A DNA stretch of 63,118 nt, filler included, from Xylographa opegraphella (taxonomy: Eukaryota): assembly GCA_022813865.1 (NCBI GenBank). It is 10 parts of 10 records of this genome, joined end to end, with 100 filler letters (N's around TTAATTAATTAA, not from the genome) between each part and the next. Parts side by side here need not be neighbours in the genome. Positions count along the whole stretch, not along the records: positions 51,045 to 57,047 come from JALDZX010000219.1; 9 more parts are not named here. One strand, written 5' to 3'. The notes under the pieces are model-generated. The model was not told the DNA's origin and ran no database searches. It saw only the letters and a program-made list of their open reading frames with translations. Position 1 is the stretch's first letter. Each line of letters begins with the position of its first letter. Both the position numbers and the translations under genes were made by a program. This document shows, piece after piece, positions 1 through 61,519 of this stretch.

Positions 1-1095
1 ATGGGTTTCGTTCAAAGCCATGTCGACCCGTGTCTGCTACTTCACAGGGAACGCGGAATCCTGTTGCTACTTTACGTCGATGATATGGGTATCGCCGCCA
101 AGACTACCGAGCAAATTAGGTGGTTCAAAACTGAGATGGCTGGTGTCTTCAAGATCAAGGACCTGGGGGAGATTCGGAAGATCCTAGGCATAGAAGTCAC
201 CCGCGACCGCAAGCTGCGTACCATCAAGCTTAGTCAAAGCCGCTATATCCAAAAGGTATTGGAATCCGTTGGTATGGTGACCGACAAGCACAAGCCCACC
301 AAAGTTCCTCTTAACAGCGAAGAATATCTACGCCCGGCAAATCCTGACGACAAAAGGGTAAACGTAAAAGAATACCAGAAGCTTATCGGAAGTCTAATGC
401 ATGCTCAAGTTTATACCCGCCCAGACATTGCCTTTGCTCTTGGTAAATTGAGTCAATTCATGAGCGATCCAGCTGAGCACCACCTGATGGGGGCCAAACA
501 TCTGTTAAGGTACATGCGAAGCACCGCTGACGTTGGAATAACCTTTGGACCAGAACCGGAAGAAGAAAGAAATCTTCACGGCTTTACCGACGCAGCCTAC
601 GCCGACGATAAGCAGGATCGGAAGTCAACATTCGGGTACGTTTTCAAGATGGCAGGAGGTCCCGTGTCCTGGGCAAGCCGGAAGCAAAAGTCGGTATCTA
701 CCTCAACTACGGAAGCCGAGTACGTTGGATTGTCAGTGGGAGCTCGCCAGGCGCAATGGCTAACCCAGCTCCTCCGTGAGTCAGGATACCCTCAGTACTT
801 AGGGCGGAACCCATACTGCGGGGACCTTAGAGGGGACAACCAGGGTTCCCTAGCATTAACCCAGAACCCGCATCTTCATGAAAGGTCAAAGCACATCGAT
901 GTCATGTATCATCATATTCGGGACTTGGCTAAGCAAAACCGGATCAAGGTGACCTATGTGCCTACAGAAGATATGGCCGCGGACGGACTAACTAAGCTTC
1001 TGAATCCCACCAAGCATAGTCAGTTCATGAGGCTTCTAGGTATGTCAAGCAGTGGGAGTTCTTCAGTCAGCAGAGGACGCTACGACAAAGACTGA
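1..1095 (+). mobile_element. Ty1/Copia pol, 3' part (RT C-terminus + RNase H), intact, truncated by contig edge
   Basis: Open frame with LLLYVDD, YQKLIGSLM..TRPDIA, FTDAAYA, STTEAEY, SKHIDV and MAADGLTK Copia motifs; followed by PPT GAGTGGGAG and an LTR. Confidence 0.97.
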
Positions 1096-1102
1096 GTGGG
1101 AG

Positions 1103-1290
1103 TGTTGAAAATCAGGGCGTTAGCAGTNNGTGTTGTTGGTCCTTTACTATAGCCGATTAGGCCTAGCTTAGTGCAGAACTAGAGGAGTCTTCTGGAGCCC
1201 CGTCTCCAGAAGAACTCTTCACCTTCTTAGTGATTAAGCAATGCACTGTTACCTGCTGCCATTACCTGTGCCTAGTGATTAGTTTCAATA
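1103..1290 (+). repeat. 3' LTR of the Copia element (LTR family A, about 188 bp)
   Basis: Starts TGTTGAAA directly after the PPT and ends TTTCAATA; near-identical copies at 19739, 33463, 49655 and 61171. Confidence 0.95.
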
Positions 1291-18110: not shown

Positions 18111-19738
18111 TTGTTACAATACCCCATGTTCTCGTTGGAGCGGCTTTGGATAGTTATTGTGAAATAATCCGGTTTGATTATTGGTCACAAATGTATGGAG
18201 GACTGGGCGCAAGTTGAATATTACAGCTACAATGCCGCTTGGTATAATTTATTAATGATATGGCAAAGCTCTGGCAAAGTAGAGAAACGACATCAATATC
18301 TCTCGCGTCAGAGTTTGAGCTTCATCGAGAGGCCAGGTAGAGCAGGTCTGAATTACTTTCAACCACGATATATAATGCAGATAGATCTTTGGGCTCCTCA
18401 CAGAGGTCGAATCTTAATAAATACAATAGTGGCTCATGATGGCAGCGTAGCTGCTATTAGGATAAGGGGATTCAAATCGAAGTTCGAGCGTTATACGGCA
18501 GATAATTCGCTTCGATTGATACTTTATTTTCCATTCAAATTCAGTTCTAGGGAATTTTAAAACAGGCTTTTCATACGAATGTTTTAACGACTTTTTTTAT
18601 ATTATAATAATTATAAATATTTGTATTTATAAAATATATAGTCGTTCTAAATTTATTGTTATATTTAATAATATTTAAAATCGTGTTGAATGTTGAAAAT
18701 ATGAAATCGAATTTATTGAAAGTGAGAAAATATTCAGGGCGAAGCACTGGGTATATCCTGTGTTAATTACAACAAAAATATTCGAAATAAAAATGAAAAA
18801 GCAAAAAAAATTCGTAAATTTTTCTTCTCGAGTAATTATATTCGTTTTAAAAGTTTTTTCGAGAGTATTCCTCGAGGTTTTAAATCTATAAACTTTGATT
18901 CAATACTTTTATTATATATAAATATCGAAATTTATTTAAATAAATAAATTTATTATCGAACAATAAAAAATTATTTGTTTAACAAAAAAAATTAATTTTA
19001 TTTTTTAATATTTTTATAAAAATAATTTTAATTATTATTATATTAACAAAAAGAAATTTTGCTTAAAATTTAAAGTTTTACAAGCCGTTTATGAAGCGCG
19101 AAAAGTGTATTTTTTGCGCATTTAATATATTTAATACGTTTAATACGTTTAATAGAAAAAAATATTTTAACACTTTTAATAAATATTTTATATATTTAAA
19201 ATACCTTTTAAATACCTTTTTAAAATATAGTTAAAAATAAAATAAATTATAAAATTTTGAAATAATAAATATTATTCGTAAATATTCGTTAATGCTGTAA
19301 CTTAATAAATATTCAACGTAATTTAAATTTTTAACAAATGTAAATTTTTTACGTAAAAATAATTTAAATATGTATTTATATTATTTATATAACTTTAGTA
19401 AAAGGTTTGCTTAAAAGGATTTAAAAGATTTTTTTCGAAAAATATTTTTTGCTTAATTAATTTTCATTAATTTTTTATAATTTTTAAATATATTTTTTAA
19501 GCGAATTAATTTTTTTTAAATATTTAATTTAATAAAAAAGTTGTTAAACGTATTAAACCTGTTAAATACGCAAAAATACGCAAAAAACACGCAAAAAATA
19601 TTCAAAAAATATATAAAAATTAAAAATTTTTATATTACTTTTGCAAATTTGCTTTTTACGCAAAAAAATACTTTTTGACCGAATATTCGTTTTTTCTTTT
19701 TGCTGATGTAAAATTTAATAAACGATATTGTATATTAT

Positions 19739-19912
19739 TATTGAAACTAATCACTAGGCACAGGTAATGGCAGCAGGTAACAGTGCATTGCTTAATCACT
19801 AAGAAGGTGAAGAGTTCTTCTGGAGACGGGGCTCCANNNNNNNNCCTCTAGTTCTGCACTAAGCTAGGCCTAATCGGCTATAGTAAAGGACCAACAACAC
19901 AGACTGCTAACG
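19739..19912 (-). repeat. LTR family A, interrupted near its end by another LTR
   Basis: Matches 1103-1290 until CTAACG, then switches to TGTTAAGG. Confidence 0.92.
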
Positions 19913-20192: not shown

Positions 20193-20546
20193 TTAATTTT
20201 TAATTTTTAATTTTTAATTTTTAATTTTTAATTTTTAATTTTTAATTTTTAATTTTAAATTTTTAATTTTTAATTTTTAATTTTTAATTTTTAATTTTTA
20301 ATTTTTAATTTTTCATTTTTAATTTTTCATTTTTTTTTTTCATTTTTCATTTTTCATTTTTCATTTTTCATTTTTCATTTTTCATTTTTCATTTTTCATT
20401 TTTNNNNNNNNNNNNNNNNNNNNNNNNNNNNNNNNNNNNNNNNNNNNNNNNNNNNNNNNNNNNNNNNNNNNNNNNNNNNNNNTTTTTCATTTTTCATTTT
20501 TCATTTTTCATTTTTCATTTTTCATTTTTCATTTTTCATTTTTCAT
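20193..20546. repeat. Simple repeat (AATTTTT)n/(CATTTTT)n; similar A/T-tract repeats at 26473-26535, 32478-32537 and 63052-63118
   Basis: Directly visible 7-8-mer arrays at contig ends. Confidence 0.9.
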
Positions 20547-33462: not shown

Positions 33463-33651
33463 TATTGAAACTAATCACTAGGCACAGGTAATGGCAGCAG
33501 GTAACAGTGCATTGCTTAATCACTAAGAAGGTGAAGAGTTCTTCTGGAGACGGGGCTCCANNNNNNNNNNNNNNNNNNNNNACTAAGCTAGGCCTAATCG
33601 GCTATAGTAAAGGACCAACAACACAGACTGCTAACGCCCTGATTTTCAACA
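33463..33651 (-). repeat. Solo LTR family A
   Basis: Reverse complement of 1103-1290. Confidence 0.95.
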
Positions 33652-33943
33652 ATATTTACTTTAAAAAAATTAATTTAATATTTTAATAATCTTATAAAAT
33701 ATTACGGTTACGCATTTAAAACTTTATTTCGTTAAATTTAATTTAATTTAATTTTAAAGTAATATATAAAGATAGTAAAATTTTAATTTTATTAATTATT
33801 TTAATTCCAAATACGCGATAAATAAATTAAATTAAAATTTAATTTTAAATACGTATATATATTTAGCGGAGAATTAATTATTTAAATAAATTAAAAATAA
33901 AAATTAATATTTATTAAAATTATTAAAATTAAATCTATAGCCT

Positions 33944-49654: not shown

Positions 49655-50944
49655 TATTGAAACTAATCACTAGGCACAGGTAATGGCAGCAGGTAACAGT
49701 GCATTGCTTAATCACTAAGAAGGTGAAGAGTTATTCTGGAGACGGGGCTCCAGAAGACTCCTCTAGTTCTGCACTAAGCTAGGCCTAATCGGCTATAGTA
49801 AAGGACCAACAACACNNACTGCTAACGCCCTGATTTTCAACACTCCCACTCAGTCTTTGTCGTAGCGTCCTCTGCTGACTGAAGAACTCCCACTGCTTGA
49901 CATACCTAGAAGCCTCATGAACTGACTATGCTTGGTGGGATTCAGAAGCTTAGTTAGTCCGTCCGCGGCCATATCTTCTGTAGGCACATAGGTCACCTTG
50001 ATCCGGTTTTGCTTAGCCAAGTCCCGAATATGATGATACATGACATCGATGTGCTTTGACCTTTCATGAAGATGCGGGTTCTGGGTTAATGCTAGGGAAC
50101 CCTGGTTGTCCCCTCTAAGGTCCCCGCAGTATGGGTTCCGCCCTAAGTACTGAGGGTATCCTGACTCACGGAGGAGCTGGGTTAGCCATTGCGCCTGGCG
50201 AGCTCCCACTGACAATCCAACGTACTCGGCTTCCGTAGTTGAGGTAGATACCGACTTTTGCTTCCGGCTTGCCCAGGACACGGGACCTCCTGCCATCTTG
50301 AAAACGTACCCGAATGTTGACTTCCGATCCTGCTTATCGTCGGCGTAGGCTGCGTCGGTAAAGCCGTGAAGATTTCTTTCTTCTTCCGGTTCTGGTCCAA
50401 AGGTTATTCCAACGTCAGCGGTGCTTCGCATGTACCTTAACAGATGTTTGGCCCCCATCAGGTGGTGCTCAGCTGGATCGCTCATGAATTGACTCAATTT
50501 ACCAAGAGCAAAGGCAATGTCTGGGCGGGTATAAACTTGAGCATGCATTAGACTTCCGATAAGCTTCTGGTATTCTTTTACGTTTACCCTTTTGTCGTCA
50601 GGATTTGCCGGGCGTAGATATTCTTCGCTGTTAAGAGGAACTTTGGTGGGCTTGTGCTTGTCGGTCACCATACCAACGGATTCCAATACCTTTTGGATAT
50701 AGCGGCTTTGACTAAGCTTGATGGTACGCAGCTTGCGGTCGCGGGTGACTTCTATGCCTAGGATCTTCCGAATCTCCCCCAGGTCCTTGATCTTGAAGAC
50801 ACCAGCCATCTCAGTTTTGAACCACCTAATTTGCTCGGTAGTCTTGGCGGCGATACCCATATCATCGACGTAAAGTAGCAACAGGATTCCGCGTTCCCTG
50901 TGAAGTAGCAGACACGGGTCGACATGGCTTTGAACGAAACCCAT
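49655..50944 (-). mobile_element. Second copy of the Copia 3' end (ORF 49850-50944, PPT, LTR A 49655-49842)
   Basis: Reverse complement of 1-1290; identical protein; one LTR mismatch near 49733. Confidence 0.97.
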
Positions 50945-52176
50945 NNNNNNNNNNNNNNNNNNNNNNNNNNNNNNNNNNNNNNNNNNNNTTAATTAATTAA
51001 NNNNNNNNNNNNNNNNNNNNNNNNNNNNNNNNNNNNNNNNNNNNATGATGTTCGATCGGCCGATTCGAACATTCGGTCATCGGTCAATAATGGGCCCGAA
51101 ATAGGGGTTCCATATTGCGACACCTGCCCTCCTATTCCGTACCAAAACTCCAACGACACCTCCGCCGAGACAATCCTCGTAATCATCCATGCTCAGCACT
51201 AAGAACCGGTTGGCAGTGGAAAAGCCTGGCATACGAGAATGACATGACATTACATCCAACGAAGCTCCGAACAAGTGCATGCACGCGAAACATCATACAC
51301 GGAACAATCAAATACGAAAACGGATTCGATGTGTGACCGGCAGGGTTTTTAATCTCAATTAATCACTACGACGGCGACAAAGCGCTGCTAAATCTCCCCT
51401 CCCCCCGAGGCTCTCAGTAGACAAACCAGTATCAATGATACCCATGTGCCCGTGCCCACGCGAAAAAGGAAAACCCTCCCCGTTCCACGCACGTCCTTGC
51501 TCGCACGCCTCCGCCAAAAGCCCAGAATCCTTGCACAAGGGGGTATAGTGTGAAAGCAAAAGCTATATTGTTACAAAAAGGGAGGTACGACTTCCGTCTC
51601 GCAAAGAGATAAACGGCCCCCAAGAACCGGTCAAAGCGCTGGAAAGAGGACGGCAGAGCGAAAGGTAGGAGTGGTGGTGTCTCGACACGAAAGAAGCGAG
51701 CACGGCAGGGGCGATTGCTCGAGCCCAAAGAACGACCCGTCAACCGGAATCGCGGGTCGAAAGGTCGATAAGGTTGGGGGGGTGAGGGTGAGGGGCCGTT
51801 GGACGGTTGCTTGGGCCGGTGAGGCGAAGGATGCTGGCTGCGCCGCAGACGAGCATGGAGGATGACGGTGTAAGGTCCCGGAGGTGTGTTGATGGCGTGG
51901 GTAGAAGTCGACTAGAGTGCTTGCTCGAGGTCATGTGGTTTTCGTGGATGTGTAGCGCGGCAGGCCATATCGAATGGCCGGCCAGTACGGTTTCGAGTGT
52001 GCGAGCAACATCGGGAGCGGACTTGCGGTCCGTGTTTGAGGTGCGATGGCAGGTCGGGTTAGAGTTGAATGCCTTCGTCAAGATGTATCACCGGTTGTGT
52101 GTCTGTGGTGAAGCTGCCGGTCGTTGCTTGCAGTCGTGGTTTCGTAGAGAAGAGGAGTTTTGAATGCCAGCGCGGT

Positions 52177-52266
52177 TTACTTTGGCACTGGGGGAAGAGG
52201 TCGGTTTGGGGGAGGACCAGGGCATGGCGGGTATTGTGTTTGCGTGCCATGGTATAAGGAAGGCAT
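52177..52266 (-). CDS. Candidate 29-aa proline-rich micropeptide MPSLYHGTQTQYPPCPGPPPNRPLPPVPK
   Basis: CACC-ATG context; first ATG downstream of a CATAAATA box (52507-52514) and a CT-rich tract; below the ORF-track size cutoff. Confidence 0.5.
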   Translation of the reverse strand: MPSLYHGTQTQYPPCPGPPPNRPLPPVPK

Positions 52267-55200
52267 GGTGAGAGAATTGGACGCTGGAAAGCGTAGGTGT
52301 TCGAGTGCGGAGGATGCTGTTGCCTGGCGAGTTGTGCTTTTAGAAGTGCGGTTGCGGTGGTGAGCAAGGGGGTTGGCAAGTCGAATCAGGCTGGGAGCAC
52401 GGCGAAGAGCTGGTTCAAGTGATCGATTGAGGGGGTCGGCGAACTGGAAAAGAATTCTGTAGTGGTAGGCAATGGACCGAGAAGGAAAGGAGGGAGAGGA
52501 AGTCAGTATTTATGACTGGAAAAAAGGACACATGACGGGCATTCCGTTTTGACAGGCCCGCTGCTTTTTTTCGGGGCTCCGTTCTGGGAACACGACCGTG
52601 GTCAGGGCTGTGAGCTTGAGTTTCCAGCCTAGCGGTTCTGAAGCACGATGCTATTCAGGGCAAGGCGAGCTGGCCTCTGTTCAATCAACTGGGCCAAACT
52701 TTGTGAGAGAAACAAGGTTGCATGGAGGCCGGGGGGTCCCGGGCAGGTGGGAATTGAAGGGCAGCGCAGGGGGGTGGGAGAGCAAACAAAAAGGCAAAAG
52801 GGCGGTCAGCGAGCGGGAATGGGCGAAACAGGGCTGATGTGCCCCTCCGGTGGTAGGTAGCAGGTAGCAGCTACTTTTTCCTCGCGAGGGAGGGGCGTCG
52901 TAGAGGGGGGGTCTTTCCCGGGGGGCCTCTGGCTCGAAATATGGGCACATGATGGGCTAAAACGGGCTGGTCGACCCCTGCGGCTTACATGGTCCCTCGA
53001 GCAGAAACTGACCACTCCCATGCCCGCATCGCCATTCGTCAGCATGTCTGACGTGGAATGTGCCGGACACGACGGCGAGCCGAGAGAAGGGCGGGGGGGG
53101 AAGGAACAAGAGAGAGATATGTCATGATGGAGGAATGACGAAGAGCCACGGCTTGTCCTGACCCTCACGCAGGCTACTGAGAGGGGGGAAGCGGTTTGCC
53201 GAGAGAGAGAGAGGCATGATTGGATGGATTGCAATTCGGCACGGTCGGCCACCCAGCTCGTGTCGGAGGATTTTGACTCACTCCTCCCATTATTTTCTAA
53301 AATGACCATCGTGAGAACGGTACGAGCGCTCGACAGAGGAGCGCAAACCCCCCCTAGACCAGCTGCAGACTGCAGCGACGGTGCGCCTGCATGGCACAGC
53401 GGCGACTCAGCTGGGCTGCACGTGGCACTCTGCAACCGGCAGCGGGCGTTGATCAGCCACTCGTCGGACGGGGGGGGCCTGTATTGAAAGTAAGTGCTTT
53501 GGGCCCGGTGTCTGATCGTCGTCCGCGACTTTCAGCAGGTCCACGCTGGCGGGTCGATGTCCGCACGCCGATCGTTCTGTCCGTTCGCTCTCCTCGTTTG
53601 GCGGACTTAAGGCTTTCCGTGTGAAGCCGAGGGATGATGGGATGTGCAGGTAATGATAGGGAATGGTGCAGGTAATGATAATGAATGCAAGGACCGGGGC
53701 GATTGCGTCACCTTCACCGCTCAGCACGTGGGAGAATTTCCACTTCCCAACGGTAGGGGAGTGAATAATATGCCGGGCGTCAATGGATGGCCAGGTTGCA
53801 GAGATTGCAGATGCAGAAATTGCAGATGTTGAAAGGGGCAAGAGGGTGGAAGGCCGAGGAAGGAAAGGAAGCTTTCGGTGCGACGCTTGGCAGCACGCGT
53901 CAGGGGTTGGCATGCCAAGACTTGGCCCCTGATGCAGGGGCTGAAACCGATCACAGGTTGATCGTCTGCCAAGCAACGCACTAACCACGGCAAGTGATTG
54001 GCTGCTGCCCTGCTCGTCATGTGATGCAACAAAAGCATGATCAGCCTTCTCCCTGATTCATACGAGGACCTTTTCAGGGTAAGCTTCTTTCCTTGGAGGG
54101 TTTGAGGCTGAGTCAGTCAGCATCCCACGATCATTTCCCCGACCGACACCTTTCAGCGCCTGCTGTGCATCATTCTGCTCGGTGTTGTTGGTGTCGAACA
54201 TTGTTCGGTGGTTGTAAAACTCTCAGGGGAGACACACTTTTCTGTCACGCAATAGAGTTCAGCTCGACCAGGAACTGAGCGGAGCAAGCTGCGTAATCAC
54301 CACGGACTCGCTATTGCAACACCCCCTTCAACACACCCCCCTCGACCCCCAATTAAACTGCCAGGAGCGATATTTGATTCAATGCGCATACAGCACCTTA
54401 GTCGCGCATACGTGCTCATTAGCCTCGCATATGCGAACGACGAACGTGCACCGAAGCCCGCTTCCGTCGGCACACCCCCATACACACACCCACAGCACTG
54501 ACGGCGTCCAATCTCGCTGGTCCACGCCACGTTGCCTCGATGCGATCATTGTAGGCTACTTTGCTGGCAGCCTGGATCCCTTTCGCTCGACCTGAGACCT
54601 TGCCTTGCGTGCTCACTGCTCAGCGCTCATCGACACCTGTGCGTGATAATTTCCAGCGTGGCGCTCCGGGCATTCCGGCTCCGGGGCGTTCGCCTGGCCT
54701 CTGACGAACCACACAATGCCGACTCCGCCACGTCCGCCCGACGACAAGGTGCCCTGACCATCTTCACACCCAATGGAGTTGTCTCGCGGACTCGTCGCGA
54801 CACCGTCCACCGAACGCGAGGCAATGGTGTGATCCCCAAATTGCGCCGTCCAAGCGCGCATCAGAATAGGTGAAATCCATCAAATCTCCCCCGCCAGCTG
54901 AACCGGGGTCGGCAGGCACTTTGGTGAGAGAAGAAAGCAGCCGAATAATGGCCACGTGGGAGTGGCGTCAGCTCGGATGCTGCAGGGCGCGGCTTCCAGG
55001 CCCTGGTGCCTGCGTCTGCACAGCACACCTTTTCCCGATGATGCCACGCATGCTCTCTCCACCCCCGGGATATTGCGCTCATGGTGCGCTACCAGCCTAC
55101 GCCGACGATGTGGATTAAGGTACAGGCCAATCAACAGTGTGTAGAAATATAACCGAGACTCGAGTCCCAGCATCAGCCCATCCAGTGCCACGAAATTACT

Positions 55201-56510
55201 GCCAATAAACATGGGCTGAGCGCCAATGTGCACACTTGGCGCCTCGCAGTCCTCGGCGACCTCGGAATCAGCTCACCACCCACACACTTTTCAACAATCA
55301 TCGAAAAGGCGTGGGTGGGTGGGTGGAATAATGGGCGGAGCGGCCGCTGTCAAAACGATCGACCGCGAGCCGCAGAAAAGGTGCAGCGTCCGGGAGGAAG
55401 TGCCGCACACACGCGAGCTGGTTGTGGCCATAGCTGGGACTTGTCTGTACTGCCTGCGGTTACACAAATTCAGGTCGTTGATATGCGCCTGGCGGCCTTC
55501 ACGTTCATTCTTGGTGACTTTACTGTGTTTCTCACTCTTGACGGGCCAGCGCCCTCGATGCGAAACGGACGGGATTCGAAGGAAGATCAACGAGATGCCC
55601 GAGCACCCCGATTCGTTTTCTCCTTCAAGACATCCACCGCCCAACCTCTCCCCAGAGTTCGGTACGTACCGGGATAAGCAGGATCCCCTCTCCCCCCCAA
55701 AGAAGAATCCTCGAATCCTCCCCCCCAACAAAGAAAACCCTCGAATCCTTCGACCCCTTTCCCCCACCACCCAGCACGCTCTACTACTCACCCTCCATCC
55801 CTCCCAGCACAAACCCGCCCGTCCTCCACCCACCCCACTCACCTACTGCCCTCCGGCATCGGGCAACGACATGCGATGCAGACAAAACGCCAATAGTTTC
55901 TCAGCTCGACACTCTGAAATCCCCACGACCGGCCCGGGATCAGACATGGAGGAAGCAAGCCGTCGTGATTGACCGTGTCTCGGACGCCAAAATATGTCTC
56001 GAAGCCGGAGCCGTAGCTAGGTAAACGCTGATCAGGTTAATTCACTCATCGGTCCCGGATAATGGGCGGTTCGTACAAGGTACGTGGTAAGTATATGGGA
56101 GGGGTAGCAAGCAATGCACTGCGGCGGTGACAGTACTGTGTAGACATTGGAGCAGCAATAGCCGACGACTTTTCAGCCAGCTCCTTTCGTAGCTATTTTA
56201 GGTAGTCTAGGTTACTTTACCTCGCTGGAAGAGGTGGGACTTTTCTCACATCCCCCACCCTTACTCATTAATCTGCATCCACAGACCCCCCCTCGGCCGG
56301 CACGGCATCCAGTCTCGAACCCGAAGCACCGGCTTTGCACTTCTCTTATTATTTTAGGCATCAAAGCCCAAAGTGGAATCTATGCGCTCAAACTCTCTCA
56401 TCACCTCTGATACCCTCACTCAGCAACCCTACTCCCCACCACCTCACCCCCTCCCTCCATGCCTGCCCACCTCATCCTCCCACCATCAATTCCACCACTC
56501 ACCCCCCTTC

Positions 56511-56962
56511 CTACCCCCCAACCTGCGACGCCCGAATCCACTCCTCCATCATCTCCCCCCCACCCGCACCCGCACCCTTTCCCCTCCGCTTAACAACCAA
56601 GCACAAGATGCGGCCATAGATACGGAACCCATCATACGTCGTCCGCGGCGCCGATTTCTTCTTATCATCCTCCTCCTCCCCGTCCCCATCTCCATCTGCA
56701 CCCTCACCCTCACCTTCTACTCGACCCACCCCCTCCTCCCCCTCCACGCTTTCCCGCCTCACAGCTCCCGACGGCCCTGCTGCGTCGTGGGCGTCGGCTA
56801 GTAGAAGAGGCCGCTCACTCGTCCCCATCCCCGTCCCCATCATCCCCCCCCCTCCACCCCGACGCCCTCGCCTCGCCTCCCCGCCACCGAAATCCCTCTG
56901 CCTTACCAAAACCCCATGCGGCGTACTCAACTCCGTCAGGAAGACCGAGACCTCGAAATCAT
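56511..56962 (-). CDS. Last exon of a hypothetical fungal protein (5' part beyond the contig edge)
   Basis: GCTAAC..CAG acceptor at 56963; EEDDKKK..RTTYDGFRIYGRILCLVVKRRG..MMEEWI looks like a conserved C-terminus. Confidence 0.7.
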
Positions 56963-57229
56963 CTGTTGCCCCCCCCAAAAAGACGTTAGCTCTCACTCCC
57001 CAACTCACCCCCCTCACCCAAAAAATCCCTCCCTAACCCCCCCCCCCNNNNNNNNNNNNNNNNNNNNNNNNNNNNNNNNNNNNNNNNNNNNTTAATTAAT
57101 TAANNNNNNNNNNNNNNNNNNNNNNNNNNNNNNNNNNNNNNNNNNNNGAGCTCTCGCTTAGCAGCTCTCGCTATCCTGCAGGCAGGCCGGGACTCTATTT
57201 CTAACAAATACTATTTTTACACCCTTATG

Positions 57230-61170: not shown

Positions 61171-61359
61171 TATTGAAACTAATCACTAGGCACAGGTAAT
61201 GGCAGCAGGTAACAGTGCATTGCTTAATCACTAAGAAGGTGAAGAGTTCTTCTGGAGACGGGGCTCCANNNNNNNNNNNNNNNNNNNNNACTAAGCTAGG
61301 CCTAATCGGCTATAGTAAAGGACCAACAACACAGACTGCTAACGCCCTGATTTTCAACA
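61171..61359 (-). repeat. Solo LTR family A with TSD AAAAT
   Basis: AAAAT at 61166-70 and 61360-64. Confidence 0.95.
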
Positions 61360-61519
61360 AAAATCAACTTTTAATTTATTTTATTTATTACGTAATCAAA
61401 CTTCGAATACTCGATTGAATTAAAATTTTTACTAACCTCGTAAATTACATTTATATTAACTATTAAACGAATGTAGCGAAGCAGGGATTTTAACGCGTAA
61501 TTATAAAATTTAATAAGGT

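Follow-up and report, generated by a model that had tools for sequence, protein, structure and literature searches.

Can an open reading frame of only 29 codons be a gene in its own right, and what might its product do? The question is raised by a small open reading frame (smORF) on the minus strand of a 63,118-nucleotide (nt) stretch of DNA from Xylographa opegraphella (GCA_022813865.1), which consists of 10 record parts joined by 100 filler letters each and is referred to here as the window. The smORF (52177..52266, minus strand) lies in the part at positions 51,045–57,047, which comes from JALDZX010000219.1; adjoining parts are not necessarily genomic neighbours. An earlier note had proposed a stand-alone gene for an SH3-ligand micropeptide at this site. 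Comparison with relatives points strongly to a conserved coding smORF, favors a stand-alone gene and is consistent with a proline-rich ligand as its predicted product.

Direct translation of 52177..52266 (minus strand) gave an ATG, 29 codons and a TAA, reading MPSLYHGTQTQYPPCPGPPPNRPLPPVPK before the stop, and this peptide has relatives in database searches. Its 18-codon core, YPPCPGPPPNRPLPPVPK (52180..52233, minus strand), holds the class I-type motif RPLPPVP. The start codon stands in the context CACC-ATG, with A at −3, and is the first ATG after a TATA-like word, CATAAATA (52507..52514, minus strand). This word is the only one of the ATAAATA type on either strand of the 6-kb island 51045–57047 and is directly followed by a CT-rich tract (52462..52506, minus strand; 82% C+T over 45 nt), a presumed initiation region; word and tract are located at −248 from the smORF start. 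In filamentous fungi, core promoters are marked by a CT block on the 3′ side of a TATA box; a promoter function of CATAAATA is presumed. The leader (52267..52530, minus strand), a presumed 5′ untranslated region, comprises 264 nt that are C-rich, G-poor (12% G) and free of ATG, the nearest upstream ATG ending 264 nt before the start. The reading frame, the TATA-like word, the CT tract, the ATG-free leader and the start context had all been reported in the earlier note, and every one of its sequence statements proved correct.

These features alone do not single out the smORF. With 12% G, base composition predicts 1.7 ATGs in the 264-nt leader, so that its lack of ATG is unremarkable by itself. 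The island contains 57 ATG-initiated ORFs of at least 25 amino acids (aa), 21 of them with PxxP and four with a class I or class II SH3-type motif, three of these being class I. The minus strand at the smORF is 41–42% C, for which reason proline-rich translations are expected, and the peptide is 45% proline. A degenerate PPCPGPPP pattern matched the window a single time and none of 100 shuffles, and the smORF sequence is single copy in the window. What places the smORF above chance is that it is conserved, with significant relatives elsewhere.

These relatives were found at the protein level by an exhaustive phmmer search of 1.84e9 representatives, using the 110-aa stop-to-stop frame that holds the smORF as the query. 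It gave two matches (E 1.1e-4 and 3.4e-4), each of which left the upstream part of the query unaligned, with similarity extending from the M to the protein end, for example ...VVNMPAQRPSQLPPCPGPPPSRPLPPLPK and ...MMPAMVTLPPCPGPPPNRPLPPVPKQ. A profile (A2) built from the C-terminal parts of three sequences, the window and the two phmmer matches, recovered 12 proteins among 21 candidates, ten of which had E values of 4e-18 to 2.5e-5 (one of the ten being a training row). The significant matches are ‘hypothetical’ proteins of 28–79 aa from several Fusarium spp., Biscogniauxia mediterranea, Colletotrichum asianum/gloeosporioides and Pyricularia oryzae Y34, thus from Hypocreales (Fusarium), Xylariales (Biscogniauxia), Glomerellales (Colletotrichum) and Magnaporthales (Pyricularia). 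A 50-aa protein of Morchella sextelata (Pezizomycetes; XP_044695420.1) reached a profile E of only 4.2, yet 15 of 16 window core residues match. Family entries include ELQ39845.1 of P. oryzae Y34 (28 aa), KAF0317072.1 of C. asianum (37 aa), KAI1638968.1 of B. mediterranea (69 aa), FOXG_01016 of F. oxysporum and FVEG_00499 of F. verticillioides (64–65 aa) and KAJ0130060.1 (P0001). All database names are ‘hypothetical’ or ‘uncharacterized’, apart from the misnomer ‘putative AC9 transposase’ given to P0001. The entries share with the window the start and the LPPCPGPPPxRPLPxΦP core, while lengths and tails disagree between gene models.

The resulting family pattern is M-(8–11 aa)-[LY]PPCPGPPPxRPLPxΦP, with a stop 0–4 codons later. 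Across an alignment of 14 sequences (A3), 12 of the 17 core residues are invariant (P10, P11, P13, G14, P15, P16, P17, R19, P20, L21, P22 and P25; pattern PP-PGPPP-RPLP--P), and M1 and C12 are nearly so. Position 23 varies freely (P/A/R/E, with H in the first of two units at one locus, L004, described below), and position 24 is L, V or T. The N-terminus of the window peptide, MPSLYHGTQTQY, is unlike the MPAQRPSQL of Sordariomycetes. Searched at E values up to 10, neither P0001 nor P0002 (a further relative) nor any of 13 family members matched a Pfam family. A word-index search with residues 71–110 gave one ‘near’ candidate (P0002, E 0.15) and no ‘longer’ relative; the lack of a longer form is weak evidence because this index misses relatives, ten of which the profile search later found. 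The best ESM Atlas scores (0.76 and 0.75) were below lead level, and the single match of a PDB profile search, a cordon-bleu fusion (E 0.052), was composition-driven. No paper was found with the peptide core words, which were also absent from three supplementary files of a fungal smORF survey (PMC7394265), and topical literature searches returned nothing relevant to this peptide family. The family, which is found across Pezizomycotina, appears to be uncharacterized. As a separate observation, the peptide occurs in two types in F. oxysporum f. sp. albedinis: ...PSRPLPPLPK, located on contigs of 1.7–12 kb, and ...PNRPLPALPKR, on a contig of 6.4 Mb. Over 26 residues, the peptides of Biscogniauxia and F. 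venenatum show no difference from the former.

Selection on the peptide was assessed with the DNA of relatives. A scan of JGI metagenome contigs yielded 425 pattern matches, four of which were confirmed (L001–L004). L001 and L002 are Fusarium-like and read MPAQRPSQLPPCPGPPPNRPLPALPKRG followed by TAA; L003 and L004 represent one other organism and end ...MSGPWAYWPLDQLPPCPGPPPDRPLPRLPKDVDA followed by TGA. Together with the window, this makes three lineages with DNA. When 51045–54500 was compared with all four loci by blastn and tblastx, only 52180–52239 aligned significantly, and the 18-codon core was the sole conserved block. Within that core, differences at the first, second and third codon positions numbered 3/1/12 between the window and L001, 3/2/13 between the window and L004 and 2/1/13 between L001 and L004 (Fisher test of third against first plus second positions, P = 5.5e-5, 3.5e-5 and 3e-6, respectively). 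Third positions had thus changed at 12–13 of 18 sites, compared to 3–5 of 36 for first and second positions, in the three pairwise comparisons. Counted by codon over a 17-codon core, 9–11 codons had changed synonymously and 2–4 non-synonymously. Because about two-thirds of the wobble positions have changed while the amino acids were kept, the comparison indicates purifying selection on the peptide. The two closely similar loci agree with this picture: between L001 and L002, the smORF differs by 2 mismatches in 87 nt, both synonymous (no non-synonymous change, no indel), compared to 8 mismatches and 3 gap columns in the 80-nt spacer on its 3′ side and 14 mismatches and 28 gap columns in the 200 nt on its 5′ side. 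The earlier note had set as its test that relatives should keep the start and the stop and differ by synonymous changes, and all three were found. On these comparisons, we consider it very probable that the smORF is a genuine conserved coding sequence under purifying selection.

The boundaries of the frame were compared across the same relatives. The stop follows the K of the motif immediately in the window and in P0001, after one residue in P0002, after two in L001, L002, P0004, P0005 and P0008 and after four in L004; the Morchella peptide ends PSK. With P0012 included, an ORF of fewer than 100 codons with a conserved start and a conserved stop, 0–4 codons after the motif, is therefore seen. 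The frame of L004 contains further in-frame upstream ATGs, from which a product of up to 105 aa could be made. It also contains, upstream and in frame, a degenerate copy of the unit, MQQSPSQLSASSGQPSNRPLPHLPKE. Since this first unit keeps only NRPLPHLPK, RPLPxLPK is the part that has been retained. In the window, a 168-codon ATG-initiated ORF (53407–53913, minus strand) lies 1.65 kb upstream of the smORF on the same strand and begins MPTPDACCQASHRKLPFLPRP; its first 41 residues are weakly similar to the degenerate first L004 unit (BLASTP of the single pair, E 0.002; tblastx, E 0.26). This ORF could be a decayed second unit or a product of chance in C-rich DNA.

What the peptide might bind was considered from its invariant residues. 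The class I SH3 consensus is given in a passage of PMC5823434 as +xΦPxΦP. RPLPPVP fits the class I consensus by direct reading, as the earlier note had stated, with +xxPxxP spacing, and R19, L21, P22 and P25 are invariant in the 14 sequences. The residue at position 23, the only one of the motif that varies freely, should point away from the SH3 groove. The nearest known ligand we compared is Pbs2 of yeast, a mitogen-activated protein (MAP) kinase kinase whose NKPLPPLP is described in sections of PMC12505296 as a type I motif docking on the Sho1 SH3 domain; the same sections state that residues N-terminal to the core matter too, making a 15-residue extended motif. The family, written N/S-R-PLP-P/A-L/V-P, matches 6–7 of the 8 residues of NKPLPPLP and likewise has a conserved flank N-terminal to the motif (here LPPCPGPPP). 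Two differences stand beside these likenesses, as the Pbs2 motif is embedded in a large kinase of 668 aa whereas here the motif is approximately the whole predicted product, and the PPCPGPPP flank has no counterpart in Pbs2. An SH3 ligand is favored because the invariant residues map onto +xΦPxΦP and come near the Pbs2 motif. That the peptide, if translated, acts as a proline-motif ligand has in our judgment about an even chance. The tight regulation and the particular pathways suggested in the earlier note are speculative. The narrower proposal, that it mimics the docking motif of Pbs2 as a free peptide and that the Sho1 SH3 domain of Pezizomycotina has it as natural ligand, strikes us as a long shot. 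Under this proposal, the invariant N-terminal Met-Pro might, by way of the Pro/N-degron pathway, also make the peptide a conditional substrate with rapid turnover. As stated in PMC4904012, citing Furukawa 2005, Aspergillus nidulans neither uses ShoA for osmosensing nor activates PbsA via Sho1, yet ShoA is functional in yeast.

Several other explanations were weighed. A frame left open by chance in non-coding DNA rich in C, or a conserved DNA or RNA element in which one frame happens to be open, would agree with the smORF being one of 57 comparable ORFs in an island without a Pfam match. It would also agree with the behavior of the antisense Gly-rich frame, which shares the wobble positions and is the only other frame comparably conserved (12–15 of 17 residues). 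This antisense frame was rejected as a gene, as in the window no ATG precedes its core and in L001 and L002 its two flanking stops are only 24 codons apart. The pile-up of changes at third positions and the conserved start and stop oppose the chance explanation as well, and DNA or RNA elements lack third-position periodicity, which argues against them here; we consider this possibility very improbable. It is scarcely credible that the smORF is part of a transposable element. In favor of such an origin are the name ‘putative AC9 transposase’ of P0001, the occurrence of at least two copy types in F. oxysporum f. sp. albedinis, some on contigs of 1.7–12 kb, and a copia fragment ~1.2 kb downstream in repeat-rich, AT-rich surroundings. 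However, no hAT dimerisation, BED, DDE or other Pfam domain was found in P0001, P0002 or the 13 members, the island is unique in the window with no long terminal repeat (LTR) copy, the flanks are not conserved between lineages and Fusarium copies of type A reside on contigs of 3–6.9 Mb. The L004 locus, moreover, adjoins a full-length orthologue of the Na/Ca-exchanger gene of the window (49% identity, 513/1057), located 1 kb upstream on the same strand. In the window, the smORF and the Na/Ca-exchanger gene are 34 kb apart on opposite strands, separated by a gene island and ~22 kb of AT-rich DNA. Vertical descent is suggested by this loosely kept synteny. A second smORF copy beside the Na/Ca-exchanger gene of the window was ruled out, the sequence being single copy. 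Gene order at L004 (1870–12064) is Na/Ca exchanger (+), smORF (+), phosphomannomutase (+) and, on the opposite strand, a gene with a WW domain and a PhoD_2 phosphatase domain; WW domains bind proline motifs, and this adjacency in L004 alone is no evidence of a link.

Whether the conserved peptide is a final product, a regulatory leader or one exon of something longer depends on what follows it. The earlier note had entertained an upstream ORF (uORF) of a gene beyond the contig edge; this was a misreading of the strand, dismissed because 52 kb of the window lie in that direction, where 1.13 kb of unmatched sequence, a masked run and the copia fragment follow the smORF. No conserved coding block was seen on its 3′ side in the window (52176 down to 51045), nothing convincing in at least 1.1 kb of L001, and in L004 the next gene, for phosphomannomutase (PMM), begins 1.66 kb downstream; in none of the three lineages was the smORF seen to lie in the leader of a conserved main ORF, which makes a uORF less likely. 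As no such ORF lies within 1.1–1.7 kb in three lineages, a stand-alone gene is favored over a uORF, which upholds the preference of the earlier note without proving it, and from the sequence arrangement we regard a stand-alone transcription unit as probable. The relatives have comparable leaders: tracts upstream of the start are ATG-free for at least 295 nt in L001 and at least 317 nt in L002, and in L002 TATTAAAA followed by a CT-rich run ~290 nt before the ATG mirrors the window layout. A regulatory smORF could nonetheless act in the nascent state, its PPCPGPPP/RPLPP run stalling ribosomes in a manner dependent on eIF5A and polyamine supply and controlling translation of a downstream ORF or transcript stability. 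Conserved-peptide uORFs work in this way, an example being the arginine attenuator peptide of fungal arg-2/CPA1. PPP and PGP are strong eIF5A-dependent motifs, arrest peptides are typically conserved close to the stop, and here most of the conservation falls on the last 18 residues before the stop. As in arginine attenuator-type uORFs, a short ORF with a conserved peptide opens at the first AUG of a long leader, followed in the window by more than 1 kb without a recognisable CDS (coding sequence), and the Fusarium-like loci hold a 41-codon ORF that starts 80 nt downstream. Unlike such uORFs, the smORF has no conserved main ORF (1.13 kb to copia in the window, at least 1.1 kb in L001 and 1.66 kb to PMM in L004), its spacing to the stop ranges over 0–4 codons and in L004 the motif is duplicated in frame, which is unexpected for an arrest peptide. 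Between L001 and L002, the 41-codon ORF differs by five non-synonymous and three synonymous changes, and the window holds nothing equivalent to it; invariant R and L with a variable position 23 suit an SH3 ligand better than a generic polyproline stall. A regulatory role of this kind, the main rival of the ligand reading, is thus possible yet rather unlikely.

Improbable, in our view, is the remaining alternative that the smORF is the first exon of a longer spliced protein, its stop overlapping a 5′ splice site and the peptide forming an N-terminal motif. GT occurs at or beside the stop in the window, L001 and L002, giving the candidate donors AAA/GTAAAC (window) and GAG/GTTAAC (Fusarium-like loci). 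Such a splice is used in nine listed members of one cluster (64–65 aa; from F. oxysporum, F. fujikuroi, F. proliferatum, F. verticillioides and others) and in five listed models of 78–79 aa, and the Fusarium models listed do not vary in the last 20 residues of their tail. The donors GTAAAC, GTTAAC and GTTAAA nevertheless lack the G at +5 of the usual fungal consensus GTRNGT, and L004 has no GT at the stop (GCT TGA GCA). The gene models disagree, as the motif is followed by four different tails; the 79-aa model is disrupted by a 1-nt indel that separates L001 from L002; and the first half of the Fusarium tail is variable at many positions among close relatives, whereas 27 smORF residues never vary. 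Models of Pyricularia (28 aa), Colletotrichum (37 aa) and Biscogniauxia end directly after the motif. The second exon, RLLA..GYTMAKDKVRPALATSRAAYAHANYD, was not found in the window by tblastn with P0009–P0011 or by tblastx; only residues 7–26 of the queries matched (7–30 for P0011), at 52239–52168. A conserved Fusarium-type second ORF in the window was likewise ruled out, with no tblastn or tblastx match downstream. A Fusarium-specific spliced form may exist. The conservation of the frame, together with the spread of the models over 28–79 aa and four tails, bears out the earlier suggestion of a real small coding gene poorly handled by annotation.

Taken together, the observations can be read as a stand-alone smORF gene whose product is a proline-rich docking ligand, a reading for and against which we find the sequence evidence evenly balanced. 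The smORF would open at the first AUG of its own short transcript, as the TATA-like box, the CT tract and the AUG-free leader suggest, and would be translated into little more than one extended proline-rich docking motif, ending right after it. The free peptide would adopt a polyproline-II helix and occupy an SH3 domain or, less likely, another proline-recognition domain. RPLPxΦP would occupy the canonical class I grooves, contacts to the specificity surface would come from the invariant flank LPPCPGPPP, and the peptide would compete with, or recruit, the normal partners of the bound domain. Several points weigh against a gene for a free docking peptide. The N-terminal 8–11 residues differ between the window and Sordariomycetes, and the distance from motif to stop is not fixed. 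The product is not always a micropeptide, given that the L004 ORF may start upstream (105 aa), and in Fusarium reference annotations (FOXG_01016, FVEG_00499 and others) the ORF is joined by splicing to a second exon, for a product of 64–79 aa. Proline richness is partly due to the C-rich strand (42% C), an elongation-stalling role would equally select PPP and PGP, and the codon-level comparison rests on only three independent lineages.

Peptides that work in this manner have precedents, in that microProteins and smORF peptides act by occupying the interaction domain of a partner. In most known microProteins there is a folded domain for dimerisation that stems from a larger paralogue. The predicted product resembles them in its very small size, its single interaction module and the proposed competition or recruitment. 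It differs in being a proposed free linear SH3-type ligand, with no parent protein found among longer proteins, which is weak evidence. An overview for fungi is available (PMC11413187). A conserved smORF peptide is of a known kind; a gene product that is wholly an SH3-type linear motif would be a new form of it.

Genes identified in the fungal window are of HET/NACHT/ankyrin, Na/Ca-exchanger-family, SUN, SesA, FRG1 and BMT5-like types. Gene-bearing GC islands (44–66% GC) alternate with blocks of 14–31% GC, the latter at 7–10, 11–15, 18–35.5, 44.5–49.6 and 57–62 kb, a layout that looks like repeat compartments degraded by repeat-induced point mutation. The smORF sits in the 6-kb GC island 51045–57047 (53–64% GC), which is strand-asymmetric, the minus strand being C-rich at 51.5–53.5 kb and the plus strand at 55.5–57 kb. 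Within this island, 78 frames of at least 50 aa matched no Pfam family save for two matches at E 0.07–0.09, Rfam gave one sub-threshold match (18.3 bits against a cut-off of 80), and neither a repeat copy elsewhere in the window nor an LTR copy was detected. Apart from the 29-codon ORF, the content of the island is unexplained. The copia fragment beyond it (49850–50944; RVT_2, E 8e-15) is a 5′-truncated reverse transcriptase/RNase H remnant. At positions 1–1290 (plus strand) and 49655–50944 (minus strand), the 3′ half of a copia-type element (RVT_2/RNase H) is present in two inverted copies that share 99.9% identity. An LTR-resembling repeat of ~190 bp also occurs at 19714–19912, 33463–33652 and 61171–61360, and a tandem array in a 7-nt register (20193–20403; self-matches offset by 7, 14, 21 ... 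nt) lies beside an LTR-like repeat and a masked run. Runs of 44 N come in pairs spaced by 12 nt, repeated every 6.1–6.7 kb (6802/6858, 13483/13539 ... 57048/57104), along with other short N runs; these look like masking rather than biology.

To our knowledge, few fungal micropeptide genes have been described and few are conserved across classes. The smORF reported here has apparently been kept from Pezizomycetes to Sordariomycetes and occurs in model fungi and plant pathogens (Fusarium, Pyricularia and Colletotrichum), where it is annotated inconsistently and one copy bears the name of a transposase. A product acting as a free SH3-type ligand would offer a minimal regulator, open to genetic study, of a scaffold in signalling or in actin/endocytosis, and if the Sho1 proposal were true, a gene product of 26–30 aa would gate a conserved membrane scaffold. 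Should the product instead be an arrest peptide, it would represent a new polyproline-based translational sensor. Either way, the locus provides a simple test case for the validation of smORFs by comparative genomics.

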